DNA of 56,321 nt from Eubacteriales bacterium (GTDB lineage: Bacteria > Bacillota > Clostridia > Oscillospirales > CAG-272). Positions 1-26,733 of this stretch are shown piece after piece. The notes under the pieces are model-generated. The model was not told where the DNA came from. It ran no database searches and worked only from the letters and a program-made list of their open reading frames with translations. The translations under genes and the position numbers were made by a program. The DNA lies in assembly GCA_045652135.1 (NCBI GenBank), contig JAZRTS010000163.1, positions 1 to 56,321 on the forward strand, in the 5' to 3' direction. Positions within the stretch are counted from its first letter, which is position 1, and each line of letters begins with the position of its first letter.

Positions 1-33
1 ATTTCGCTGGTCCGAATCCAGCCATCCCAGCCA
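1..33 (+). tRNA. 3' end of a tRNA truncated by the window edge (T-arm, acceptor 3' strand, encoded CCA); Gln-like
   Basis: T-arm gctgg/tccgaat/ccagc at 6-22, acceptor strand catccca, discriminator G, CCA at 31-33, followed directly by a terminator. The implied U1:A72 pair plus G73 resembles Firmicute tRNA-Gln. The T-loop reads TCCGAAT rather than TTCGAAT, and the anticodon lies outside the window. Confidence 0.5.
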
Positions 34-34
34 G

Positions 35-66
35 AAAAAAGCTCGTTCGAAAGAACGAGCTTTTTT
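35..66. terminator. Bidirectional intrinsic terminator
   Basis: A6 run, 8-bp stem gctcgttc/gaacgagc with a GAAA loop, then a T6 run. Confidence 0.8.
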
Positions 67-68
67 CA

Positions 69-221
69 ATGATGTTTGCCTTCGGCAAATGATGACGGCT
101 ACGCCTAATGATGTGTGCCCAACGGCACATAGAGGCAAACATCGCATCATTGCGGAACGGAGTGGAGCAACATCATATTTGCGAAGCAAATGCATCATAT
201 CGCCGCAAGGCGATGCATCAT
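69..221. repeat. Hexamer-punctuated hairpin array A (ATGATG x3, then CATCAT x4)
   Basis: ATGATG at 69, 89 and 108; CATCAT at 145, 171, 193 and 216. The spacers fold as short hairpins at 75-89 (TTCG loop), 114-129, 177-191 (GCGAAGC mini-hairpin) and 199-214 (GCAA loop). Confidence 0.75.
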
Positions 222-250
222 TTGACAAATGTGCGAATTTATAATATAAT
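222..250 (+). promoter_or_regulatory. Consensus sigma-A promoter for the four-helix-bundle gene
   Basis: TTGACA (222-227), 17-nt spacer, TATAAT (245-250), 27 nt upstream of the ATG at 277. Confidence 0.75.
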
Positions 251-276
251 AACGGCGATAGGAGGTGCTACTGACT

Positions 277-630
277 ATGAAAGAAAATAAACTCGTCAAG
301 CTTTCAATGGACTTTTCCGTTGATATTATAAATCTCGTTAAATATTTGAAAAGTATCCACGAAACAATCATCGCAAACCAGATCGGCAGAAGCGGCACCT
401 CGATTGGCGCCAATATTCATGAAGCGCAATACGCGCAAGGCACAAAGGATTTTATATCTAAATTCGAAATTGCTCTTAAAGAAGCAAGTGAAACGGGATA
501 TTGGCTTGAGTTGCTTTATAGAACGAAATATATTGATGAGCAAGCTTTTAAAACACTCTCCTCAAAATGCACTTCGTTACGAGTGATGCTGATTGCCTCT
601 TGTAAAACGGTGAAGGAGAACACGAAATGA
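277..630 (+). CDS. Four-helix-bundle protein (23S rRNA intervening-sequence protein family, TIGR02436-like)
   Basis: The ORF track gives 265..630 with a GTG start, but the ATG at 277 lies 11 nt after GGAGG (261-265). It is ~117 aa and helical, with the family-typical SIGANIxEA segment. Confidence 0.8.
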   Translation: MKENKLVKLSMDFSVDIINLVKYLKSIHETIIANQIGRSGTSIGANIHEAQYAQGTKDFISKFEIALKEASETGYWLELLYRTKYIDEQAFKTLSSKCTSLRVMLIASCKTVKENTK

Positions 631-1115
631 AACGCCTATTATCTTTTCTTTGTGTTATGCTTCTTTGTCTCACTGTTTCCGCGTGCGGGTTTACAGAAAA
701 CAAATTAAGTAAGCACTTTGCGTTTGAAACATCTGATTTTATTGTTGTAGAAGAAAATGACACGCACAGTGGTTTTCACGGAGATGGCTCATACTATCTC
801 ATTTTAGATTGCTCGCAAAATACTGATAAAGCAAGAAATATTGTTAAAAGTTGGAAGAGCTTGCCTCTTTCTGAAAACCTGCATCTTGTTATGTATGGCG
901 GCGAAAAAGACGGCATAAATTACGGATACAATTTTGCCGAAGAAGCAAAATGGCCAACAATAGAAAATGGTGTATTCAAATTTGTTGATCGCCACACTGA
1001 ATCCAAAAACATCAGTGATGATTCTCAACTGCTCGACAGATACTCTTTTAATTTTTCTATTGCTGTTTACGATTTGGACTCTGATACCCTGTATTATTTT
1101 GAGATGGATACTTGA
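627..1115 (+). CDS. Hypothetical lipoprotein
   Basis: N-terminal signal peptide with lipobox LTVSA-C. Its start overlaps the upstream stop as ATGA. No recognisable domain. Confidence 0.7.
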   Translation: MKRLLSFLCVMLLCLTVSACGFTENKLSKHFAFETSDFIVVEENDTHSGFHGDGSYYLILDCSQNTDKARNIVKSWKSLPLSENLHLVMYGGEKDGINYGYNFAEEAKWPTIENGVFKFVDRHTESKNISDDSQLLDRYSFNFSIAVYDLDSDTLYYFEMDT

Positions 1116-1182
1116 TAAGTTGACCTTTTGTTCGTAATCACCTCGGCTTTTGACCTTTTATCCGCAACAAGGCAGAAAAAAG

Positions 1183-1207
1183 CATCGATTTTGTCGGTGA
1201 TTTTTTT
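1183..1207 (+). terminator. Intrinsic terminator after the lipoprotein gene
   Basis: Stem catcga/tcggtg (one G-U pair) followed by a T7 run. Confidence 0.55.
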
Positions 1208-1210
1208 CAA

Positions 1211-1386
1211 CGAAATAATAAATCCCTAACGGGATTTGTGAAATATGCTGCCTCATATGAAATAGCTAACGCTATGAAATACGTAGCTTGCGTATGAGGG
1301 ATTTATTTAATTTCACTTTCTGCGCAAGCAGAAAATTTCATAATCCGTGAGAATTATTTCATATTTTCCGCGAGGAAAATATTTCA
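1211..1386. repeat. Heptamer-punctuated hairpin array B ((A)TGAAAT x4, then ATTTCA(T) x4)
   Basis: Forward motifs at 1212 (degenerate), 1239, 1258 and 1275; reverse-complement motifs at 1310, 1335, 1356 and 1381. Spacer hairpins at 1220-1237 (7 bp, TAAC loop), 1263-1274 (TAAC), 1279-1295, 1317-1334 (7 bp, GCAA) and 1363-1380 (7 bp, GCGA). Confidence 0.8.
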
Positions 1387-1477
1387 TTAAAATCTATCAC
1401 TCCGTCAACAGCAAAATATCACTAAAAGTTTGTTATTTAAAGAATCGAAGTTATAAAAACGCAAGGGAAAACACGGA

Positions 1478-1798
1478 ATGAACAATACAAAATGGACGGA
1501 AATCTTCAAAGAATTTTATTACGATATTGAATGTTCAAAGGATGATGAATTAAGCCGCACACCGATTCAATGGACAACCAAATCAACAAACGGTTATATA
1601 TACTCCGACACTACATGGACACATTTCGGGGTTGGTATGGAAAATTCAAAAGAAATTGAATGGTTAAAAATCGATCTGACTCCTGCAAATAAGGATATTG
1701 TTCTTGCTGTTTTGAGAAAAATTCATGTCCCGGGTGAAGTGTTTGACGATTGTGTATACGTATATGGCTATCGCACGGATGTTGACTATATAAAATAG
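1478..1798 (+). CDS. Hypothetical protein (106 aa)
   Basis: Clean ORF with a weak AAGGGA Shine-Dalgarno upstream. No recognisable motif. Confidence 0.55.
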   Translation: MNNTKWTEIFKEFYYDIECSKDDELSRTPIQWTTKSTNGYIYSDTTWTHFGVGMENSKEIEWLKIDLTPANKDIVLAVLRKIHVPGEVFDDCVYVYGYRTDVDYIK

Positions 1799-1841
1799 TA
1801 TAATTGCACCGTGACAAACAAAACGATTAAGGAGAATAATA

Positions 1842-2465
1842 ATGAGTGTACCGATTCCGCACTATTTAAATGATATAGCTATTCTTGAAAAGCAAAAGGA
1901 CACTTGGGTTCATTTTACCGTCAAATGCTCTTGTGAAAGTGACCGTTTTCTCGTTTACGAAAACCACCTTAACAAAGAAGAAAAAGCGCTTGAAAGGCCT
2001 TATTACGATAAACTGACGGAAATTTATTGCAGTAATTCCCGGAGGATAACAATAAAAGACGAAAACGGAAAAATACATTATTGGAAAGCGCTTGAAGATT
2101 CAAAAGAAGAAATCGTAATCCCCGAAAAGCCGTATTTTTCGGGAATCACGGTCATCAAGGCAAAATGCGCCGATTGCGGAAAAGAGCATTTGATTTTTGA
2201 CAGCAGGATTCACGGCTACGACGGGATAACAGGCGAAGAAACAAAAGAAGCTATGGAATATGAGCCGCACTTCAGGTTAAAGTGCAAAGGCATTGTTTCT
2301 TTGTCATTGAAAATCGAGAACAGCGAATCTTTTGAAGAATTCAGTGAGGACTACGATCTCGGATTTACCGAAGAACAATATTCAAACGCATTCAGCTGGA
2401 TTATGATTTACAGAACAGACGAAAAAGGAAAGAAAACAAAGATCTTCGATTATGAAACAGCGTAA
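1842..2465 (+). CDS. Hypothetical protein with CxC...CxxC cysteine pairs (207 aa)
   Basis: AAGGAG sits 8 nt upstream of the ATG. Cysteine pairs are KCSCE and KCADCG. No recognisable family. Confidence 0.65.
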   Translation: MSVPIPHYLNDIAILEKQKDTWVHFTVKCSCESDRFLVYENHLNKEEKALERPYYDKLTEIYCSNSRRITIKDENGKIHYWKALEDSKEEIVIPEKPYFSGITVIKAKCADCGKEHLIFDSRIHGYDGITGEETKEAMEYEPHFRLKCKGIVSLSLKIENSESFEEFSEDYDLGFTEEQYSNAFSWIMIYRTDEKGKKTKIFDYETA

Positions 2466-2495
2466 AGCTTTGTATTGGTCGTTGATGGTATAAAT

Positions 2496-2525
2496 AAAAG
2501 GAACACCTTGCAAAGTGTTCCTTTT
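2496..2525. terminator. Bidirectional terminator between convergent genes
   Basis: 11-bp stem aaaaggaacac/gtgttcctttt with an 8-nt loop. The A and T runs are built into the stem ends. Confidence 0.8.
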
Positions 2526-2530
2526 GTTAT

Positions 2531-4066
2531 TTAAAGAATTTCCGATGCCGTGCGTTCAACCTCAAGCATCTTTTTATATTCTTCCATATATTTATTGAAT
2601 CCGTCTATGTCGCTTTGATCTGCCTTCACGGTTACGCTTTCGGCATTCTTAAACACACGGTCATTCAAATAATCTTCAAGTGATTCGCCGTCATTTTTGT
2701 CTGACGCATAAGCTGCAAGAAGCGCCATACCGTAAGGGCCGCCCTCACCAGCTGTTTTCATACAGGTGATAGGTGCGCCCGAGCACACGCACGACATATA
2801 CGTTTGACCGACCTTGGGTGTTTTGAACAGTCCGCCATGGCCCGTCATAGAATCGATTTTCACATTTTCCTTTTCAAGAATATCCATTCCGAGCTTCAAG
2901 GTCGCCATTGTGGAATAAAGAATCGACCTGAAAAAGTTTGCAAGCGTAAATTTACTGTCAGGACGGCGCACAACTAACGGACGTCCGTTTTCAATATGCG
3001 TTATGACCTCACCTGCAAGATAATTGCAAACAAGCACACCGCCGCAGTCAGCATCCCCCGTCAGTGACTTTTCGTAAAGCTTCGTGTATATATCGCCGTC
3101 TGACACATCAGCGCCGAGAAGCATCGCCGATTCTTTAAGAACGGACACCCACGCATTTGAGTCAGTTGTGCAGTTGTTACCGTGAACCATCGCAACATTC
3201 TTTCCGCTTGGTGTTGTTATAATGTCTATTTCCTCATACACGTTTTCAAGAGGTTTCTCCATAACGACCATCGCAAAAATGGACGTACCTGCAGAAACAT
3301 TTCCAGTTCTCGGTGCTACTGCATTCGTTGCAATCATTCCCGTTCCGCCATCCCCCTCGGGAGGTGCAAACGGAATACCCTCAGGCAAAAGTCCGTCTAT
3401 CATTTCAGAACCTTTTTTCGTAAGCGTACCTGCATTTTCACCTGCAACAAGAATCTTCGGTAAAACATCCGTAAGCTTCCACGGAATCTTTTTTTCCTCT
3501 GCAAGCTTGTTGAACTTTTCGACCATTTTTTCATCATAGCAAAGCTTTTCCGTATCCACGGGGAACATACCCGATGCTTCGCCTATACCGACAGCATTGA
3601 CACCCGTCAGCATATAATGAACATATCCTGCAAGGCTTGTTATATGCGCAACTTTAGAAACGTGTTCTTCCCCATTTAAGACCGCCTGATACAGATGAGC
3701 TATAGACCATCTTTGCGGAATATTGAAATTAAAAAGCTCTGTAAGCTCATAAGCCGCAGGTGCTGTTATCGTGTTTTGCCATGTTCTGAAAGGTACTAAA
3801 AGATTCCAATCTTCATCAAAGACGAGATATCCGTGCATCATACCCGAAAGTCCCATATAACAAACGTCTTCCCTGCCCTGTATCTGTGACAGCGCAGTTT
3901 TAAGTCCGTCCCAGACCTTTGAAACATCATAAGTCCAGATGCCGTTTTCGTATGAGCTTGCCCACGTATAATCTCCGCTTGACACGGGTTTATATTCAGA
4001 ATCGAGAGCAACGGCCTTTATTCGTGTTGAGCCGAATTCAATTCCGAGAAATTTTTTATTATTCAT
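2531..4066 (-). CDS. FGGY-family carbohydrate kinase (xylulokinase-like)
   Basis: N-terminal GIEFGSTRIKAV actin-fold ATPase motif, ~510 aa, with FGGY-like architecture throughout. The ATG at 4066 lies behind AAGGCGG; the GTG at 4075 in the track is less likely. Confidence 0.75.
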   Translation of the reverse strand: MNNKKFLGIEFGSTRIKAVALDSEYKPVSSGDYTWASSYENGIWTYDVSKVWDGLKTALSQIQGREDVCYMGLSGMMHGYLVFDEDWNLLVPFRTWQNTITAPAAYELTELFNFNIPQRWSIAHLYQAVLNGEEHVSKVAHITSLAGYVHYMLTGVNAVGIGEASGMFPVDTEKLCYDEKMVEKFNKLAEEKKIPWKLTDVLPKILVAGENAGTLTKKGSEMIDGLLPEGIPFAPPEGDGGTGMIATNAVAPRTGNVSAGTSIFAMVVMEKPLENVYEEIDIITTPSGKNVAMVHGNNCTTDSNAWVSVLKESAMLLGADVSDGDIYTKLYEKSLTGDADCGGVLVCNYLAGEVITHIENGRPLVVRRPDSKFTLANFFRSILYSTMATLKLGMDILEKENVKIDSMTGHGGLFKTPKVGQTYMSCVCSGAPITCMKTAGEGGPYGMALLAAYASDKNDGESLEDYLNDRVFKNAESVTVKADQSDIDGFNKYMEEYKKMLEVERTASEIL

Positions 4067-4116
4067 ATACTTCACCGCCTTGGTTTTATTCTACCATACA
4101 ACTTTGAAAATGTCAA

Positions 4117-4146
4117 ATCCCCGACAGATTTTTGTCTGTCGGGGAT
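4117..4146. terminator. Intrinsic terminator
   Basis: 12-bp perfect stem atccccgacaga/tctgtcggggat with T-rich flanks. Confidence 0.75.
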
Positions 4147-4150
4147 ATTT

Positions 4151-4534
4151 TTATTCATCATCTTCCTCGTCTTCGTAATTTTCCTCGTTTTCATCATCAG
4201 GCTTAAACTCATTGTCGGGATTTGATATTTTATCATTTAAAAATTCTCGAACATTTTCCATCCAATTACCGTCCTCAGACATCATATCCTTGAACGTTTC
4301 AAAATCGGAATCATCGCTTTCCTCAAGAAATGTCTGACGGAGCCTCATCTGCTCCACAAACGAAAGAGCAACATCAAAAAGTAAAATTGCCAAGCCTATG
4401 TTAACGAATGACTTAACGAATATTCCCACTATCGAAAAAACAATACCCAAAACAAAAAGTACCCAAAATCTGAATACTATATTCATCACAAAACCAAAAA
4501 TAAATAAGCTTATCGGATATTTTCTGTTTTTCAC
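4151..4534 (-). CDS. Small membrane protein with an acidic C-terminal tail
   Basis: GTG start 7 nt after AAGGAG. Two or three hydrophobic helices are followed by a D/E-rich tail. Confidence 0.6.
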   Translation of the reverse strand: MKNRKYPISLFIFGFVMNIVFRFWVLFVLGIVFSIVGIFVKSFVNIGLAILLFDVALSFVEQMRLRQTFLEESDDSDFETFKDMMSEDGNWMENVREFLNDKISNPDNEFKPDDENEENYEDEEDDE

Positions 4535-4576
4535 CCTCGAACTCCTTTAATCTTTATATCCACCTTATTATAACAT

Positions 4577-4611
4577 AAAATCAGCAGGAAAACAATATCC
4601 CTGCTGATTTT
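4577..4611. terminator. Intrinsic terminator downstream of putP
   Basis: 12-bp stem aaaatcagcagg/cctgctgatttt. Confidence 0.75.
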
Positions 4612-4621
4612 TATATTTTAA

Positions 4622-6184
4622 TTATTCACATTTACCTGCACGTACAGCCTCGAAATCTTCTTCGATTTCTTTTGAAGGTGCTTTTGTCAGAAGTGAAACA
4701 ACAACGATGCAAACACACGAGAATATGAACGCAGGAAGAAGCTCATAAATTGCGAACACGCCGCCTATCTTGCTGAGCACGAGCTTCCAGAAGAATACCA
4801 TAAACGCACCGCTTATCATACCTGCGACAGCACCGGGCTTATTGACACGCTTCCAGAAAAGTGAGAATATCATAATCGGTCCGAATGTTGCACCGAATCC
4901 CGCCCAAGCAAAGGATACTATTTCAAATATAACGCTGTTTTCATCAAGTGCTATAACAATACCGATAGCGGTAAGAACAAGAAGCGTGATACGTGAAACG
5001 TTCATAACCTGCTTGTCGCTTGCGTTTTTCTTGAATACTCCCTGGAAAACGTTCTTTGAAAAAGCAGATGCGGCAATAAGCAGATATGAGTCTGACGAGC
5101 TGATAGTCGCCGCAAGAATTCCTGCCATTACAAAGCCTGCGAGAATGGGGGGAAGGAATGACTCTGACATAAGAATGAATATGCTTTCCGCTGATGACTT
5201 TGTCAAAAGTGCATCGGGGAAAAGCTGACGTCCGACAATACCTATAAATACCGCAACGGCAAGGGATATAACTACCCAAACCATAGCAATTCTGCGTGAA
5301 CGCTTAAGTTCTTCTTCCTTACGTATAGCCATAAAGCGCAAAAGTACCTGAGGCATACCGAAGTAACCGAGGCCCCATGCCATCATTGAGAAGACGCTGA
5401 GCAAGCCGTAATTTGCAGCCTCACCGAATACGGGCTTACCGCCTTCAAGGAGCTGTGTTCCCGCTTCGTTAACAGTAGGTGTTGCAAGTCCGAAAAATTC
5501 GAAAAATCCGGGGATAGCCTTTGCATTGTCAACGACAGCGCCGACACCGCCTGCCTGTACCACGCCGATTATAACGATAACAGCGAGCGCCACTATCATA
5601 ACAATAGCCTGCATAAAGTCAGAAGCACTTTCAGCCAAAAATCCGCCGAGTATCGTATACACAAGCACGAACACCGCACCTACGATAAGCATTGCCTGAT
5701 AAGGAACACCGAACAATGTTGAAAAAAGCTTTCCGCATGTTACAAAGCAGCTTGCCGCATATACCGTAAAGAATATAAGTATAAACAAAGCCGAAAGAAG
5801 CATTATATGCTTGTTCTTTTCTCTGAAACGGTTTGAAAAGAAATCGGGAAGTGTAATCGAGTTATTAGCCCTTACACTGTAGCGCCTTAAACGCTTTGAA
5901 ACGATAAGCCAGTTAAGGTATGTACCTACCGCAAGACCTATAGCCGTCCAAGCGGCATCCGCAAGACCGCACCAATAAGCAACACCGGGGAGTCCCATAA
6001 GAAGCCATCCACTCATATCCGATGCCTCAGCACTCATCGCCGTTACCCAAGGACCGAGTGAACGACCGCCGAGAAAATATTCTTCAGAGCTTTTATTGGC
6101 ACGCTTCGCATAGAAGACACCGATCATAATGACTGCTGCCATATATATGACCATTGCAATCAAAATCTGAATTGTATCATTCAT
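4622..6184 (-). CDS. putP: Sodium:proline symporter (SSF family)
   Basis: 520 aa and polytopic. N-terminal YFLGGRSLGPWVTAMSAEASDMSGWLLMGLPG is typical of PutP. GGAGG RBS. Confidence 0.85.
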   Translation of the reverse strand: MNDTIQILIAMVIYMAAVIMIGVFYAKRANKSSEEYFLGGRSLGPWVTAMSAEASDMSGWLLMGLPGVAYWCGLADAAWTAIGLAVGTYLNWLIVSKRLRRYSVRANNSITLPDFFSNRFREKNKHIMLLSALFILIFFTVYAASCFVTCGKLFSTLFGVPYQAMLIVGAVFVLVYTILGGFLAESASDFMQAIVMIVALAVIVIIGVVQAGGVGAVVDNAKAIPGFFEFFGLATPTVNEAGTQLLEGGKPVFGEAANYGLLSVFSMMAWGLGYFGMPQVLLRFMAIRKEEELKRSRRIAMVWVVISLAVAVFIGIVGRQLFPDALLTKSSAESIFILMSESFLPPILAGFVMAGILAATISSSDSYLLIAASAFSKNVFQGVFKKNASDKQVMNVSRITLLVLTAIGIVIALDENSVIFEIVSFAWAGFGATFGPIMIFSLFWKRVNKPGAVAGMISGAFMVFFWKLVLSKIGGVFAIYELLPAFIFSCVCIVVVSLLTKAPSKEIEEDFEAVRAGKCE

Positions 6185-6216
6185 ATTTTTTCCTCCATAT
6201 TGAATAAATATAATGC

Positions 6217-6246
6217 ATTATATCATAAATATACAATAAATGTCAA
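6217..6246 (-). promoter_or_regulatory. Sigma-A promoter for putP
   Basis: On the minus strand: TTGACA (6246-6241), 18-nt spacer, TATAAT (6222-6217). Confidence 0.7.
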
Positions 6247-6290
6247 TATCTTTTAATATAATCATAATTTAAGATTGCCCTGTATATTAA

Positions 6291-6465
6291 TGAAATCGTG
6301 CGGAATTGCTTCGCACAATGAAATCCTCACTTTGTTCGGATGAAATCTTCAGCCTACGGCTTCAGATGAAATTAAATCCACCCATCCGCCGTCGAGGCAG
6401 ATTTCATTCCCGCAGGGAATTTCATCGTCGAATACGATTTCACCCACCCGCAAGGGTGGATTTAG
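6291..6465. repeat. Heptamer-punctuated hairpin array C ((A)TGAAAT x4, then ATTTCA(T) x4)
   Basis: Forward motifs at 6291, 6319, 6341 and 6367; reverse motifs at 6401, 6419, 6437 and 6460 (the last degenerate, ATTTAG). Spacer hairpins at 6298-6316, 6407-6419 (GCA loop), 6424-6438 and 6444-6459 (GCAA). TAAATCCACCC (6373-6383) is perfectly complementary to 6454-6464. Confidence 0.8.
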
Positions 6466-6470
6466 TTGCA

Positions 6471-6500
6471 AAAAGAGCAAGTCATATGACTTGCTCTTTT
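6471..6500. terminator. Bidirectional terminator after tRNA-Ser
   Basis: Perfect 30-nt palindrome aaaagagcaagtcat/atgacttgctctttt. Confidence 0.8.
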
Positions 6501-6503
6501 CTC

Positions 6504-6594
6504 TGGCGGAGAAGCAGAGATTCGAACTCTGGAACCCTTTTACCGGTTACACGATTTCCAGTCGTGCGCCCTCGACCAACTAGGCGACTTCTCC
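6504..6594 (-). tRNA. tRNA-Ser (anticodon GGA)
   Basis: The reverse complement reads ggagaagtcgcctagttggtcgagggcgcacgactGGAaatcgtgtaaccggtaaaagggttccagagttcgaatctctgcttctccgcca. It is 91 nt with a long variable arm, a GTTCGAATC T-loop and an encoded CCA. Confidence 0.9.
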
Positions 6595-6615
6595 ATATCG
6601 GTTGAATACTTGTGT

Positions 6616-6644
6616 ATTATATCACAACAAATCAAAAAAATCAA
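6616..6644 (-). promoter_or_regulatory. Sigma-A promoter for tRNA-Ser
   Basis: On the minus strand: TTGATT (6644-6639), 17-nt spacer, TATAAT (6621-6616), about 20 nt upstream of the tRNA 5' end. Confidence 0.65.
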
Positions 6645-6694
6645 GAGTTTTTTCAAAAAAATATTATTTTTTTGATATTCAACCTTTTTCGGCC

Positions 6695-7132
6695 TTATAT
6701 TACGATATTAACATCGAAATTTTGACCGCAACGAGGACATTTTACCGTGTGTTTTCCCTTTTTTCTCGGCAAGCGCAAGAAGCTTTTGCAGTGCGGACAT
6801 TTGCGATAGCGATGTGTTTTTATATACTTTACACGGTTGAAACTTCTTTTGAAAAACTCGCCGATGGGCCTTGAAAGCTTAAGATATACTGCATTTTCCT
6901 TTTGGCGCGCGTAAATATTTTTTGAAAAAAATCGAAAAATTATAATCGCCAGCAGCATAAAGCTAAAAATCAGTAGCGCCAATGAAATTATCTGTGATGC
7001 TTTTGATGAGGAAAAAGCAAGAAATGCTCTTATTATAAAAATTACAAAGTACGCACAGAACATAAAAAACGAAAACTTATCGTATCCGTATCTGCCGTAC
7101 ATAAATCTTATCAGCTTATCACGAAATCTCAT
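6695..7132 (-). CDS. Membrane protein with a C-terminal zinc ribbon (CPHC...CPRC)
   Basis: The ATG at 7132 lies behind AAGGAG; the longer track start at 7195 would overlap the upstream gene. Two TM helices are followed by CPHCKS...CPRCGQ. Confidence 0.65.
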   Translation of the reverse strand: MRFRDKLIRFMYGRYGYDKFSFFMFCAYFVIFIIRAFLAFSSSKASQIISLALLIFSFMLLAIIIFRFFSKNIYARQKENAVYLKLSRPIGEFFKRSFNRVKYIKTHRYRKCPHCKSFLRLPRKKGKHTVKCPRCGQNFDVNIVI

Positions 7133-7181
7133 TTTATTCTCCTTAAAATCAGTAAAGACAACCTTTCGGTTGTCTTTACCA

Positions 7182-8597
7182 TTATAACGAAACATCTTGA
7201 ACGAATATTTCTCTTATTGTATCTTTTTTAACTTCATTCTGAGTATTCGCCGTTTTTCCTCTTTTTTCAAAGAAATCCGTTGCAACCTTCGGGAAAAGCG
7301 CATAGGAAAGCACATCCTCCTCACACTTGGCAATTCCCTTCGCTTCTTCTTTGTACTTTTCAAGCTCGGGCGCAATAAGATCGGCAGGACGGCAGGTTAT
7401 GACTTCTTCATCGCCTATTGCCTTTTTGCGCACTTCTTCATTGACTTCCCCCGGAAGTCTTCCGTATTCACCCTTCAAAAGCCCTTTTGACTCCTTGGTG
7501 AACACCTTGTATCTTTCACCGGAAAGCACGTTGAGAACTGACTGTGAGCCTACGATCTGGCTTGTGGGTGTTACAAGAGGAGGATAACCGAAGTCCTTTC
7601 TTACACGGGGAATTTCCGCAAGCACCTCGTAATATTTATCCTCGGCATTCGCCTGCTTTAGCTGTGATATGAGGTTTGAAAGCATACCGCCGGGAACTTG
7701 GTACAAAAGCGTATTTGTATCAACGTTGAGCACCTTGGGATCAAGCGAACCGCTTTCTTTGAGTTTCTTTGCAATGCCTCTGAAATGCGTTGCGGCATCG
7801 CTTAAAAGCGCAAGGTCAAGACCTGTATCGCGTTCTGTTGATGCCATTGTGGCAACAAGTGATTCGGTTGCCGGCTGTGATGTGCCGTTCGCAAGCGGTG
7901 AAAGTGCCGTATCAACTATATCAACACCTGCCATTGCCGCCATAAGATACGTCATATCGCCCGTACCCGACGTGTTGTGTGTATGCAAGTGGATCGGCAC
8001 GGATATTTTTTCTTTAAGTGCCTTTACAAGCGAGTATGCATCATAAGGCAAAAGCAGGTTTGCCATATCTTTGATACAGATAATGTCAGCGCCCTTTTCT
8101 TCAAGTCGGCACGCAAGATCAACAAAATATTCGTGGCTGTGAACGGGGCTTGTCGTGTAGCTTATTGCCGCTTCGACCGTACCGCCGTACTGCTTTGTAA
8201 ACTTCATCGCCGCTTCGATATTTCTTATATCGTTCAGCGCATCAAAAATTCTGATTATATCGATACCGTTTTCAACGGATTTCTTTACAAAAGCTTCTAC
8301 AGTGTCATCGGCATAGTGCTTGTAGCCGAGAAGATTCTGCCCTCTTAAAAGCATCTGGAGCTTCGTATTCGGCAAAGCCTTGCGAAGCGTGCGAAGTCTT
8401 TCCCACGGATCTTCATTCAAAAAACGCATACATGAATCGAATGTTGCGCCGCCCCAGCATTCAAGCGAATAAAAGCCTATTTTGTCAAGCACCTCGCAAG
8501 CAGGGAGCATATCCTCAATTCTCATTCTCGTTGCGGCTTGCGATTGATGTGCATCACGCAGTATAGTATCTGTTATTTTTAACGGATTTTTAGCCAT
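7182..8597 (-). CDS. oadA: Oxaloacetate decarboxylase alpha-type carboxyltransferase subunit, with no biotinyl domain
   Basis: N-terminal ITDTILRDAHQS HMGL-like TIM-barrel motif and HxH metal site (HLHTHNTSG). 471 aa, ending before any biotin-attachment domain. Confidence 0.8.
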   Translation of the reverse strand: MAKNPLKITDTILRDAHQSQAATRMRIEDMLPACEVLDKIGFYSLECWGGATFDSCMRFLNEDPWERLRTLRKALPNTKLQMLLRGQNLLGYKHYADDTVEAFVKKSVENGIDIIRIFDALNDIRNIEAAMKFTKQYGGTVEAAISYTTSPVHSHEYFVDLACRLEEKGADIICIKDMANLLLPYDAYSLVKALKEKISVPIHLHTHNTSGTGDMTYLMAAMAGVDIVDTALSPLANGTSQPATESLVATMASTERDTGLDLALLSDAATHFRGIAKKLKESGSLDPKVLNVDTNTLLYQVPGGMLSNLISQLKQANAEDKYYEVLAEIPRVRKDFGYPPLVTPTSQIVGSQSVLNVLSGERYKVFTKESKGLLKGEYGRLPGEVNEEVRKKAIGDEEVITCRPADLIAPELEKYKEEAKGIAKCEEDVLSYALFPKVATDFFEKRGKTANTQNEVKKDTIREIFVQDVSL

Positions 8598-8614
8598 ATT
8601 ATACCCCTTTCAAG

Positions 8615-9796
8615 TTAAAACATATTGGGTATCTGCAAAAGAACGCCTGCGGCAATCGCAGAACCTATAACACCGGCAACATTGGGTCCCATTGCGTGCA
8701 TAAGCAGGAAGTTTGAGGGATTAGCCTCCTGACCGACCTTTTGCGAAACACGTGCCGCCATAGGCACAGCGGAAACACCTGCCGAGCCGATGAGGGGATT
8801 GATCTTGTTTTTGGAAAACAGATTCATAAATTTAGCAAGGAGCACACCGCTTCCCGTACCTATCGAGAATGCGAACACACCCATAACAAGTATAGCAAGC
8901 GTTTCAAGATTAAGGAAGCGTTCAGCGGTTGCCGTAGCGCCGACGGAAATACCGAGGAATACCGTGACAATATTCATAAGCTCATTCTGAACGGTCTTGC
9001 TGAGTCTTTCTGTAACACCGCATTCACGAAGCAGGTTACCGAGCATAAGCGAACCGATAAGAGATGCCGCAGACGGAACAAGCAGTGATACGAATACAGT
9101 GATTACAATGGGAAAAACGATTTTTTCTGTTTTTGAAACCTCACGAAGCTGTTTCATCTCTATCATACGTTCTTTTTTAGTTGTGAGGAGCTTCATTATC
9201 GGAGGCTGAATAAACGGCACGAGCGCCATATAACAATATGCCGCAATAGCGATAGAGCCCAAAAGCTCAGGCGACATTTTTGTTGCCGTGTATATTGCCG
9301 TAGGGCCGTCAGCGCCGCCGATGATTCCGATAGAGCCTGCCTGCTGGGGTGTAAATATCCCCGAAACACGGGCAAGTATATACGTTACAAAGATACCTAT
9401 CTGTGCCGCCGCACCCAAGAGAAGCGACTTGGGATTTGCAATAAGCGGTGCAAAGTCAGTCATCGCACCGACACCGATAAATATAAGACACGGGAAGATA
9501 CCGAGCTTGACACCGAGATACAGATAGTCGATAAGACCTGCCGCACCATCGGAAAACATCCCCCAGTTTATATGTCCCGTTTCATTTATAAATATTTCGG
9601 GGTGATAAAGCTCAGCCCCCGGAAGATTTGTAAGGAGCATGCCGAATGCTATCGGCAAAAGCAAAAGGGGTTCAAACTTCCTTACTATCGCAAGATAAAT
9701 AAGAAATGCCGAGATGGCATACATCACAAGCACCAACGGCTTATCGGCGATACCGAAAAAACCTGTGGTCTTGACAAAATTTAAAAGTGCATCCAT
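8615..9796 (-). CDS. oadB: Na+-translocating decarboxylase beta subunit
   Basis: 393-aa polytopic protein of the OadB/GcdB/MmdB type, located inside the decarboxylase operon. Confidence 0.85.
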
Positions 9797-25119: not shown

Positions 25120-25542
25120 TCAGCACACAAGAAATCCTATAACGGGGCCTGCAAATATAGCGAGATATATAAGAGTTATCCACGGCTGATAATCTATGTA
25201 AAAGCCCTTGAATGACAAGCTCCACGGATGCTTTATAATAACCCATCCGAACACATCGAAAACAATGCAGATACATGCCCATATTGCACCTGTAATTAAA
25301 GCCTCGCCCAGTGAAGGTGTCTGCAAGCCGTTCATATAAAGATAACCGAATACCGAAAACAGTATTACATTGTATAAGGGGTGCCACGGCTTTGTTTTTT
25401 CGTACCCCTCGCCCATACTTTCGCTGTCCATCGGCTTCATGTGAAGTACATATATGTTAAAAACCGTATGAAGTATCCCTATAGCGGTAACTATAGCATA
25501 AGATACCCAAAAATAAAGCATTGACATTCCGAAATTTTGCAT
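25120..25542 (-). CDS. Hypothetical membrane protein (140 aa)
   Basis: Four hydrophobic helices. The RBS is weak and the exact start is uncertain (M1, M6 or M8). Confidence 0.5.
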   Translation of the reverse strand: MQNFGMSMLYFWVSYAIVTAIGILHTVFNIYVLHMKPMDSESMGEGYEKTKPWHPLYNVILFSVFGYLYMNGLQTPSLGEALITGAIWACICIVFDVFGWVIIKHPWSLSFKGFYIDYQPWITLIYLAIFAGPVIGFLVC

Positions 25543-25560
25543 GATAAGTTTCTTTTTGTA

Positions 25561-25648
25561 TGAAATCTTCAGCCTATGGCTTCAGATAGAATAACTTTCG
25601 TTTTAATATCGGCAAGAAAACAAGCTCACCGATAAATTGGAATTTGAC
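25561..25648. repeat. Copy 1 of a ~90-bp dispersed repeat (D1)
   Basis: Near-identical to 26186-26276. It starts with (A)TGAAATCTTCAGCCTATGGCTTCAG, also present in array C at 6341-6365, and ends with ACCGATAAATTGGAATTTGAC. Confidence 0.85.
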
Positions 25649-25656
25649 CTGAAAAA

Positions 25657-26073
25657 TCAGGCTTTTGTTTCGTAAATAAACAGTATTTCATCAATGATAG
25701 CATATAACACACTTTTACCGACAAGATCTTTGGCCTCATCGTGGCTGAAATATGCAGAGGACCAATACTCGTTGCCATCAACCTTTACGACAACACTACC
25801 CGTACGCTGGAAAAAACCGGCTTCCCAATTGGACACGACGCCTTCAACGGGGGTGTAGCGTTCACACTTATTTTTAAAATTAAGGTACATAACAAGGTAA
25901 TACACTGCGGGAAGCAATGTACAAACACCATTGATTGCAACTGTGATAAACAGAAAGATTCCGGTTTCGAGTGCGCTCGTCAACCAGCCAAACAACAAAA
26001 AAACTTCTATAAAAGCGAAAAGGGCAAACCATTTTAACGTGGTTTCCAGGTATTTACTTAAAGATAGTTTCAT
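25657..26073 (-). CDS. Hypothetical membrane-anchored protein (138 aa)
   Basis: AAAGAGGT RBS. Two N-terminal TM helices are followed by a ~60-aa soluble domain. Confidence 0.65.
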   Translation of the reverse strand: MKLSLSKYLETTLKWFALFAFIEVFLLFGWLTSALETGIFLFITVAINGVCTLLPAVYYLVMYLNFKNKCERYTPVEGVVSNWEAGFFQRTGSVVVKVDGNEYWSSAYFSHDEAKDLVGKSVLYAIIDEILFIYETKA

Positions 26074-26089
26074 AATATACGACCTCTTT

Positions 26090-26142
26090 GTAAAATTCTT
26101 ATTTATCGGTTAGATTATACCACAAGATATTACCAAAATCAA
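26090..26142 (-). promoter_or_regulatory. Promoter plus conserved leader module L1
   Basis: On the minus strand: TTGATT (26142-26137), 17-nt spacer, TGgTATAAT (-10 at 26119-26114), then CTAACCGATAAATAAGAATTT (26113-26093) and the RBS. Confidence 0.7.
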
Positions 26143-26185
26143 GTCTTGTGCCTTGTATAACATCAATATCAGAGAACAGCAATAA

Positions 26186-26276
26186 TGAAATCTTCAGCCT
26201 ATCGGCTTCAGGCAGAATAACTTTCGCTTTTTAATTTCGGCAAGAAAACAAGCTCACCGATAAATTGGAATTTGAC
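26186..26276. repeat. Copy 2 of the ~90-bp dispersed repeat (D2)
   Basis: Differs from D1 by a few substitutions and short indels. It abuts the stop codon of the SMI1/KNR4 gene. Confidence 0.85.
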
Positions 26277-26280
26277 AGCA

Positions 26281-26718
26281 TCACACCTCGTTATTGTAAT
26301 ACTTGGTTATCAAATCGGAAATATCCTTAGCAACCTCACGAATTTCAAAAAGCTCATGTTCCCAAATATATATTGCTGATGTATCCGTTTCGTCATTGGA
26401 AAGGACACGATAGCAGTAATAATCACCACAACCATTTGATGCAAAATAAACAAAACGGTTTACTTTTTCTTCAAATTCATCAGGCTCAAAGTATTCAGCC
26501 ATTATCTCACGATTTCTCTTTACATTGCTGATGATTTCTTCTGCAGAAAGCAGAAACCAACGGTCTCCATTAGTTTCTCGCAATAAGGCTTTCAATTCTT
26601 CAGGAAAGGTAAAACCAACATATTTCTCGGCTTTCTTAATTTGTTTTTCCGGGCAAGGTTCTTGTAACTTTGCCCAATCATGCCCCTCTATTAGTTTTCC
26701 AATAAGTTCTCTATACAC
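26281..26718 (-). CDS. SMI1/KNR4 (SUKH-1) family protein, immunity-protein-like
   Basis: KKAEKYVGFTFPEELKALLRETNG matches the SMI1_KNR4 signature. The GTG at 26718 lies 8 nt after GGAGG; the track start at 26733 overlaps that RBS. Confidence 0.75.
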   Translation of the reverse strand: MYRELIGKLIEGHDWAKLQEPCPEKQIKKAEKYVGFTFPEELKALLRETNGDRWFLLSAEEIISNVKRNREIMAEYFEPDEFEEKVNRFVYFASNGCGDYYCYRVLSNDETDTSAIYIWEHELFEIREVAKDISDLITKYYNNEV

Positions 26719-26733
26719 GATAAAAACCTCCAC

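Follow-up and report, generated by a model that had tools for sequence, protein, structure and literature searches.

The 2010 publication on Gut-1 (PMC2864571) presented it as a candidate non-coding RNA with sequences "found only in human gut", and both Rfam and that publication treat it as a single small RNA (sRNA) of ~77 nt; its genomic context is not covered there. The stretch considered here, contig JAZRTS010000163.1 of the Eubacteriales bacterium assembly GCA_045652135.1 (56,321 nt in full, "the window" below), holds near its left end an element, array B (1209-1388), whose motif shares with Gut-1 the run of at least three short hairpins, the (G)UGAAAU or GUGAUAU linkers, the co-varying stems and the gut metagenome origin. 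Unlike the published Gut-1 record, the motif here makes up one half of a larger mirrored element with a closing helix and further linker families. This element stands inside mobile tRNA-flanking cassettes, with a terminator at one end of it and, as a rule, a promoter at the other, and it is found in the gut of ruminants and pigs as well. The flanking sequences of the published Gut-1 seed alignment also show mirrored halves, on which the publication does not remark. We consider it well supported by the sequence comparisons below that array B represents a mirrored Gut-1-type array and a fixed non-coding module of tRNA-flanking mobile cassettes in gut Clostridia.

The REP/BIME/REPIN elements of Proteobacteria (PMC3116915) are likewise extragenic, high-copy hairpin units near gene 3' ends, with inverted arrangements and mosaics with conserved linkers, and are thought to act or move in single-stranded form (PMC3116915). 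They differ in having a conserved unit sequence per genome and in their association with RAYT, a Y1 transposase, whereas here the stems of 109 spacers are unrelated, the linkers alone recur, and no RAYT-like gene was found among the window open reading frames (ORFs) that were scanned. Single-strand origins (sso) of rolling-circle plasmids resemble the arrays in being multi-hairpin regions of 150-300 nt that keep their structure and some short motifs without keeping the sequence, but they are orientation-dependent and plasmid-borne, whereas the arrays are strand-symmetric and chromosomal.

Array B as a divergent Gut-1-type element

The preliminary description of this stretch had placed four forward motifs opposite four reverse-complement motifs in array B, and this 4+4 layout is present. 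The halves, motifs and hairpins of the array are the following.

1209 to 1311, + strand: left half, a Gut-1-type domain with cGAAAT, four hairpins, TGAAAT three times and a second GGGATTT
1302 to 1388, - strand: right half, the opposed array, with ATTTCA four times (as read on the + strand), three hairpins and no closing helix
1211 to 1216, + strand: cGAAAT, the degenerate first motif
1239, 1258 and 1275, + strand: exact TGAAAT, left half
1310, 1335, 1356 and 1381, + strand reading: exact ATTTCA, right half
1220 to 1237: hairpin 1, AAATCCC/taac/GGGATTT, perfect stem of 7 bp
1243 to 1258: hairpin ATATG/ctgcct/CATAT, perfect stem of 5 bp
1262 to 1275: hairpin ATAGC/taac/GCTAT, perfect stem of 5 bp
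1279 to 1295: hairpin ATACG/tagcttg/CGTAT, perfect stem of 5 bp
1317 to 1334: hairpin TTTCTGC/gcaa/GCAGAAA, perfect stem of 7 bp
1340 to 1357: hairpin ATAAT/ccgtgaga/ATTAT, perfect stem of 5 bp
1361 to 1382: hairpin ATATTTTCC/gcga/GGAAAATAT, perfect stem of 9 bp

The motifs are irregularly spaced, at 17-35 nt, and TGAAAT occurs 113 times in the window as a whole vs. 68.4 +/- 8.5 expected. Mirrored arrays, by which we mean at least three copies of a hexamer followed by at least three copies of its reverse complement, number three in the window (A, B and C) vs. none in 200 dinucleotide shuffles. All five spacer hairpins named in the preliminary description were found, and two further spacers fold as well, giving hairpins in seven of seven, with a chance of an equal or longer stem per spacer after shuffling of 0-0.11. 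The second copy of GGGATTT, the 3' arm of hairpin 1, lies at 1298-1304 as had been reported. An enrichment for GNRA- and UUCG-like loops had also been put forward; here the description needs correcting, as array B has no UUCG loop. Read on the + strand, the loops are TAAC, CTGCCT, TAAC and TAGCTTG in the left half and GCAA, (CC)GTGA(GA) and GCGA in the right half. Folded as RNA, the 206 nt of 1195-1400 reach -60.1 kcal/mol (z -6.1) on the + strand and -61.8 kcal/mol (z -6.8) on the - strand, and folded as DNA -33.9 kcal/mol (z -5.1); none of the shuffles reached the native folding energy.

The most similar sequences with a name are those of Gut-1. Against the Rfam model (RF01706), the left half of array B scores 38.4 bits (E 6.5e-5, + strand) and the right half 36.6 bits (E 1.8e-4, - strand), both below the gathering score of 50, and array C scores 65.4 bits with its minus-strand half, above that score. 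A covariance model of our own, R1, was built from nine first halves, all from outside the window and with the closing helix included; its only three matches in the 56-kb window are the first half of array C (59.2 bits), array B at 1209-1311 (46.8 bits, E 5e-7) and the second half of array B on the - strand (23.9 bits, E 0.02). The earlier view of arrays B and C as elements of one kind is supported. Gut-1 is defined by at least three hairpins with (G)UGAAAU linkers, and the left half of B has four, with cGAAAT and three TGAAAT; compensatory stem change is found in alignment A1 of nine TGAAAT arrays, in which 19 of the 29 consensus pairs have changed on both sides. Judged from these sequences, the assignment of array B as a divergent member of an extended Gut-1 family, in which each array consists of two facing units, is well supported. 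The TGAAAT type is patchy in its distribution, as R1 found no such domain in 1.27 Mb of related-species loci. Rfam matches to Thr/Trp leader, STnc30, MIR8001 and NsiR1 come from terminator hairpins, lie far under the gathering scores and were rejected.

The complementarity of the two halves raised the idea, in the preliminary description, of a ladder in which motif i pairs with motif 9-i. We do not find it supported: the in-register scheme is not predicted thermodynamically for array B, where the linker-linker pairing predicted is limited to that of 1239 with 1310 (P 0.93) and that of 1356 with the 1211 region (P 0.81). In relatives, odd linkers are left uncompensated in the opposite half (TTTTCAC in L312, ATATCAC in L259, ATTTCTC in L310, and several in L198; the compared relatives carry L labels, e.g. 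L128 or L351), and linkers are uniform even in arrays without a mirrored half. We therefore take the linker complementarity to result from two units of the same family lying on opposite strands, and not from a selected long helix. Kissing between loops and linkers (UUC with GAA) was rejected because the loops remain UUC/UGC where the linker becomes GAU, and a series of weak terminators, each a hairpin plus AUUUCA, because U-richness is confined to the TGAAAT family. A CRISPR array, with repeats of 23-50 nt, unique non-palindromic spacers and a single orientation, does not fit either, as the repeats here are 6-7 nt, the spacers are palindromic and the orientation switches at the centre.

Family anatomy and the tRNA-flanking cassettes

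About 35 arrays were gathered from 80 loci around SSF symporter orthologues, from metagenome contigs and from contigs encoding homologues of the neighbouring genes. A metagenome scan for three copies of GTGAAAT returned many unrelated tandem repeats, and ~21 true arrays were left after a hairpin filter. Further copies of the array type, which the preliminary description had made a test of its proposal, thus exist in large numbers in related genomes and metagenome contigs. By our reading of the sequences, the mirrored arrays that could be assessed (~23) have one order in common. An intrinsic terminator, usually bidirectional, comes first and is followed by hairpin 1 (X' loop X) with three or four linker/hairpin units; the centre holds a second X, and beyond it lie three or four units with reverse-complement linkers and usually a promoter. 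A terminator hairpin precedes every one of these ~23 arrays, and at least 12 arrays follow a tRNA gene. A sigma-A-type promoter-like site lies within 130 nt downstream of 19 of 26 arrays, vs. 5 of 26 on the reverse strand. This anatomy recurs with varied linkers in L120, L122, L127, L128, L152, L198, L223, L233, L259, L269, L274, L302, L310, L312, L326, L335, L345 and L351; the linkers differ among arrays around a common core TGAWRY (TGAAAT, TGATG(T), TGATAT, TGAAGC/T, ATGSAAT), and the stems, in 109 distinct spacers, are unrelated across arrays yet nearly always paired. The view of a folded nucleic acid, as opposed to a row of protein sites in duplex DNA, is supported, hairpins being kept while stems change in relatives; a simple stand-alone sRNA is argued against by the position past a terminator.

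The alternative pairing of AAATCCC with the GGGATTT at 1298, which had been noted for array B, turned out to be a family-wide feature. X' can pair with either the adjacent or the distal X, and in helix tests the same compensatory changes keep both pairings. The triple reads AAATCCC / GGGATTT / GGGATTT in the B type and AAATCCACCC / GGGTGG / GGGTGGATTT in the C type, and in array A orthologues it changes jointly (TTTGCC/GGCAAA/GGCAAA vs. TTGCCC/GGGCAA/GGGCAA). An exact second copy of the 3' arm is found downstream for hairpin 1 in 16 of 32 arrays, vs. 10 of 97 for the other hairpins. RNAalifold favours the long-range closure for the family; in array B itself, local hairpin 1 is preferred over it (P 0.96). 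The closing helix is present only in the terminator-proximal half, so that one half is not the equivalent of the other. There are also half arrays and degraded ones (L141, L149, L198b), and in L198 the second half is duplicated together with the promoter. A third arrangement was seen in L185 (1-215), where a bidirectional terminator replaces the usual closure at the centre of two convergent hairpin arrays of the TGAAAT type.

In the window, arrays A, B and C and their surroundings are laid out as follows.

1 to 33, + strand: tRNA 3' end (T arm GCTGG/tccgaat/CCAGC, ...catcccagCCA), truncated by the window edge and nearly the same as the tRNA-Gln 3' end in L127
34 to 1174: cassette 1, with array A, the four-helix-bundle gene and the lipoprotein gene
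34 to 67, + strand: bidirectional intrinsic terminator, the first element of cassette 1, a 15-bp stem plus T run right after CCA
68 to 222, no strand assigned: array A, AATGATG three times and CATCAT four times, with hairpin 1 TTTGCC/ttc/GGCAAA and a second GGCAAA at 133-138; orthologous arrays in L152, L128, L326, L335, L336 and L339
222 to 250, + strand: consensus sigma-A promoter TTGACA-17-TATAAT, 12/12 matches, overlapping the last CATCAT of array A
265 to 630, + strand: four-helix-bundle gene, Avd-like, by family match to PF05635 (23S_rRNA_IVP) / TIGR02436
627 to 1115, + strand: lipoprotein-like gene of 162 aa (signal peptide and Cys in the translation, no family match), the variable second gene of cassette 1, overlapping the preceding gene (ATGA)
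1116 to 1174, + strand: tail of cassette 1, ending ...GGCA at its right edge, aligned in alignment A2 with the tails of L351, L233, L335 and L128
1175 to ~2530: cassette 2, with array B, DUF6678 and the 207-aa gene
1175 to 1208, + strand: decayed family terminator GAAAAAAGCATCGATTTTGTC..GGTGATTTTTTTC, the start of cassette 2, with ~12 nt gone, namely the loop and some of the 3' arm; what is left, a hairpin at 1183-1199 and the T run, scored terminator-like
1430 to 1457, + strand: possible weak promoter TTGTTA-16-TATAAA for the next gene, read by eye and under the 9/12 scan threshold
1478 to 1798, + strand: DUF6678 gene (family match), the first of cassette 2; in L205 a gene of this family is the second gene, after the PF05635 (IVP) gene
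1842 to 2465, + strand: 207-aa gene without family assignment, the second gene of cassette 2
2493 to 2528, no strand assigned: perfectly abutting inverted repeat, a terminator shared with the convergent FGGY kinase gene and the right limit of cassette 2
6291 to 6470, - strand: array C, sister of B, after tRNA-Ser(gga) (6504-6594, - strand) and a terminator (6471-6500, - strand), and preceding the consensus promoter (6246-6217, - strand) of the SSF symporter gene

Across the family, a block opens with a terminator, often of the form ...TTTGTC tacc GACAAA..., which is followed by the array and a promoter. Next come, very often, the four-helix-bundle gene and a variable second gene that overlaps it, and the block closes with a tail of ~80 nt ending ...GCA. 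Such cassettes measure ~1-1.4 kb and hold one or two small genes each, the second genes being MazG-like, nucleotidyltransferase (NTP_transf_2), lipoprotein, DUF6678, deaminase-like or a 124-aa protein; the sequences suggest that the second gene may be exchanged at a fixed joint with the PF05635 gene, the ATGA overlap. The left edge of a block lies directly after a tRNA CCA or after the tail of a preceding block, and serial arrays bracketing one or two small genes near tRNAs were found in the window (A to B) and in L122, L128, L198, L233, L326, L335 and L351. Block edges were mapped in L344, L345 and L351. One block of 1,020 bp shares 99.7% identity between L344 and L351, and 98.1% between L345 and L351, in the midst of unrelated flanks. 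It stands directly behind the CCA of tRNA-Pro, behind that of tRNA-Arg, and behind a pseudo-tRNA end next to a large serine recombinase gene. Blocks of a second type, that of the array-A family, lie after tRNA-Ala, tRNA-Gln and a tRNA-Ser-like remnant, with 99.9% identity over the block between L335 and L339. Because near-identical cassettes stand behind different tRNAs, we conclude that the cassettes move; the flank-block junctions come from metagenome assemblies, in which a 1-kb repeat could have brought together the wrong left and right flanks in one contig, while the junctions themselves should be real. In L344 (1-1230), the copy of the TGAAAT-type cassette starts behind the pseudo-tRNA 3' end (TCTA/tcaaaat/TAGA gtcatttgCCA), directly downstream of the recombinase gene, and possibly lies at the edge of an integrated element.

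The window junction at 1174/1175, ...AAGGCA/GAAAAAAGCATCGATTTTGTC... (= ...GGCA/GAAAAAAGC...), aligns with the block junctions in L351, L233, L335 and L128 (alignment A2), and two tandem cassettes are thus recognised behind the tRNA at 1-33. Array B accordingly stands in a cassette as defined above, in one with a decayed terminator and a weak promoter. It is not kept together with its downstream gene: next to the DUF6678 homologues compared there is no such array, the gene following 48 nt after another gene in L198-L202 and after a tRNA in L203, so that array B is not positionally conserved with that gene. At the tRNA-Ser/SSF locus the array alone is present or absent. L129 (9551-10003) and the window (6184-6600, - strand) both have tRNA-Ser, a homologous terminator core CAAGTC.tat.GACTTG, the promoter and the SSF gene in the same order, and L129 lacks the array that the window has as array C.

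Metagenome contig depth is 400-1200x over arrays vs. 10-20x over flanking genes, indicating high copy number. Just past a Gut-1-sense array in L207, a contig of human-gut type, we also observed a second high-copy stretch (1977-2138; 200-500x vs. 15x in the flanks) with hairpins of the GGGGACGG/aagg/CCGTCCCC type. Pfam scans covered 50 of the 61 window ORFs of at least 60 aa (the other 11 being seven of <120 aa scattered before 52 kb and four beyond 52 kb), and no transposase, integrase or reverse transcriptase was found among the scanned ORFs, those in the rest of the window, outside the cassettes, being ordinary chromosomal genes. Window 1-9000 had no megablast match in phage genomes, the cassette proteins had none in PADLOC, and an exact-protein look-up found no identical protein on record for the DUF6678 and SSF proteins. 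In viral contigs, the matches listed for three copies of TGAAAT are apparently mostly due to chance.

PF05635 proteins are known from rRNA intervening sequences (PMC11270868) and, as the accessory protein Avd, from diversity-generating retroelements (PMC10053308). Four PF05635 genes could be assessed within the first 3.1 Mb of loci; each of them comes directly after a mirrored array plus promoter, and the same placement recurs in all the homologue contexts examined later. L233, L302, L310 and L326-L353 all have a gene of this family right behind a mirrored array. Close homologues number in the thousands, mostly on contigs of <2 kb, which fits repeats flanking them on both sides. Their subfamily follows the linker family: where the arrays have TGATG the gene is of the window type, and where they have TGAAAT it is of the L233/L302/L310/L345 type. 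Some gene callers over-extend the gene into the array, giving products of 171-185 aa. The PF05635-encoding intervening sequences of 23S/16S rRNA likewise combine this small gene with stable-RNA genes and strongly structured non-coding DNA on its flanks (PMC11270868). They interrupt rRNA helices and are excised from the RNA, whereas the cassettes here follow tRNA 3' ends, behind a terminator and with their own promoter.

Possible roles of the arrays

Evidence for action as RNA and as DNA is split. Arrays present in Gut-1 sense only start 2-22 nt past the stop codon of a co-oriented gene in eight of nine cases, which is consistent with a role at the RNA level, and the G of GUGAAAU can lengthen stems by a U.G pair on the Gut-1 sense only (87 vs. 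13 G.U pairs). In L261 / L301 (- strand, ~790-900 oriented), a Gut-1-sense array lies between a promoter-like site and a ribosome-binding site, in a 5' leader. Mirrored arrays sit past strong terminators and upstream of the next promoter, which counts towards DNA or towards both strands.

As the mirrored array is placed between terminator and promoter and is alike on both strands, we take it to be a cis-acting boundary module, and tentatively propose, at somewhat less than even confidence and from the sequences, that it would work as a folded single strand between the terminator and the promoter of the cassette. What is conserved is only the ability to form hairpins, the linkers, the C:G-closed loops and the X'/X/X triple. 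A polymerase escaping from either side would transcribe one hairpin half and then the complement of its linkers, and the escaped RNA might collapse into a compact branched fold, by which the cassette promoter and the upstream tRNA unit would be kept independent.

Several of our own findings weigh against this proposal. The insulation mechanism is one that we infer from position only, and with the arrays lying past strong terminators little RNA should arrive there. Internal G.U pairs make up ~1% and are symmetric (6 vs. 5 of ~520 pairs), which is unusual for a selected RNA. On the strand opposite the Gut-1 sense the loops are G-N-A / G-N-N-A closed by C:G (GAA, GCA, GCAA, GTCA, GAAA...), reading U..C on the Gut-1 sense; this is the rule for extraordinarily stable DNA mini-hairpins (PMC13037366, PMC3201870), and among the array loops triloops, and tetraloops outside the GNRA class, are frequent. 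In one family, TATATCAT then ATGATATA, the halves come in reverse order, and at array B itself the terminator is decayed and the promoter no more than weak. A search for RNA runs covering the window found none, and the run contigs matched to L207 and L233 contain DNA and carry no strand or end information.

There is also a reading that we hold possible, though on the unlikely side, in which the array would be a cis site for cassette mobility, folding in a single-stranded stage of transfer and being recognised by structure plus short linkers, in the manner of integron attC, IS200/IS605 ends and plasmid single-strand origins. Stems that are Watson-Crick on both strands and loops that follow the DNA mini-hairpin rule would suit such a site, as would the enclosure of the arrays in discrete blocks, 98-99.9% identical behind different tRNAs, with sharp edges after CCA on the left and ...GCA on the right, always co-oriented with the tRNA and with hairpins at both ends; the copy number that makes the arrays break metagenome assemblies and the presence or absence of array C alone point the same way. 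The array, however, is internal to the block and not at its edge, no mobilising enzyme was found among the scanned window ORFs, Gut-1-sense-only arrays stand in ordinary 3' untranslated regions (UTRs) in consistent orientation, and recognition would have to be structural since the stems differ between copies. With integron attC the arrays have in common the conservation of structure over sequence, inverted short cores (GTGAAAT vs. GTTRRRY, 6/7 positions) and a location between serial small gene cassettes. An attC site, however, is one imperfect hairpin with extrahelical bases and RYYYAAC / GTTRRRY cores; it closes the 3' end of a cassette that has no promoter, and intI is nearby. The arrays consist of many small perfect hairpins, each cassette brings its own promoter and terminator, no integrase was found among the scanned ORFs, block edges lie outside the array, and adjacent arrays (A vs. 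B) use different linkers; an integron-style crossover at the array centre was rejected on this last ground, neighbouring arrays belonging to different linker families. IS200/IS605 elements are similar, by resemblance only, in oriented insertion 3' of a short target without duplication, in an element 3' end like the target (CCA / GCA), in subterminal hairpins at both ends and in tandem stacking, with which the block edges are compatible; they differ in that no Y1 transposase is seen among the scanned ORFs, the cargo is an Avd-like plus a variable gene, and the array has no counterpart there. A broader and still less likely view, in our estimate, would make "Gut-1 RNA" not primarily an sRNA at all but the structured cis element of undescribed small non-autonomous mobile cassettes, inserted exactly after tRNA CCA, stacked in tandem and carrying an Avd-like plus an exchangeable gene, with the array recognised in single-stranded form by the mobilising machinery or by the Avd-like protein.

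A role as RNA proper seems improbable to us. Two convergent Gut-1 RNAs, as sRNAs or 3'-UTR domains, each with four or five identical single-stranded linkers around a closed junction, would in that case bind or sponge an oligomeric protein, for which the neighbouring Avd-like four-helix-bundle protein would be the obvious candidate. The Rfam entry lists Gut-1 as an sRNA with covariation (PMC2864571), and the sense orientation after stop codons, the 5' leader case, the strand-specific U.G pairs at stem/linker edges and the recurrence of IVP genes of matching subfamily after the arrays all fit; but no promoter in the cassettes reads the right half in Gut-1 sense, both halves lie past terminators, the co-variation of IVP and linkers may be simple linkage, and arrays B and C are without an adjoining cognate IVP gene. 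That the arrays are a functionless by-product, the decaying remnant of cassette ends in which template switching during replication made the palindromes and kept them perfect, we regard as very unlikely. Array B with its decayed terminator and weak promoter, the stems perfect on both strands and the half and degraded arrays are what it would lead one to expect, yet the architecture (linkers, loop polarity, C:G closing pair, X'/X/X) persists over five or more linker families and in samples from the gut of ruminants, pigs and humans, and array A orthologues change X', X and distal X together. Least probable of all, by our estimate, is a platform of duplex DNA, an iteron or operator array for a protein reading TGAWRY hexamers in two orientations upstream of a promoter. 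Eight short identical motifs in mirror order right upstream of promoters would suit it, and so would the joint duplication of half array and promoter in L198; it does not explain why every spacer is palindromic, with compensatory change and polar loops, and it is at odds with the irregular motif spacing and with one genome having different linkers (TGAAAT and TGATG in the window).

Irrespective of the details of the boundary-module proposal, the mirrored architecture, the closing triple, the linker families, the placement between terminator and promoter, the loop polarity and the cassette/tRNA context are, to our knowledge, new with respect to the literature searched. Gut-1, an orphan "human gut only" sRNA in Rfam since 2010, thereby becomes one half of a strand-symmetric element with a defined place, abundant enough in Clostridia of ruminant, pig and human gut to break metagenome assemblies. 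The motif gains biology that can be tested, be it insulation, mobility or binding of the neighbouring Avd-like protein, and PF05635 proteins gain a third setting associated with stable RNA, beside rRNA intervening sequences and diversity-generating retroelements. On the practical side, the arrays are a source of misassembly and of spurious gene calls.

Other features of the window and related loci

Elsewhere in the window, 4150-4567, which holds a 127-aa ORF (4151-4534), is skipped by related-strain contigs from four gut metagenomes, some of which carry 5-15 other letters instead, so that strains differ in whether they have this small gene, which lies between those of the FGGY kinase and the SSF symporter. 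A+T-rich palindromes of the TTTTTTCAAAAAAA type at 6631-6676 and 6914-6933 flank a 166-aa zinc-ribbon ORF (6695-7195). At 25120-26733 a SUKH-1 / SMI1_KNR4 immunity-type protein (26281-26733) lies beside two family-less ORFs of 138-140 aa, and the three may be a small immunity-gene cluster.

Among the related loci, a different kind of mirrored repeat, G+C-rich, was seen in L192 (3539-3666), with CACCGG three times at 15-nt spacing and then CCGGTG three times. In L194, inverted copies of a three-hairpin G+C-rich module (2561-2665 and 5969-6079) enclose ~3.3 kb and may be the terminal inverted repeats of a transposon.

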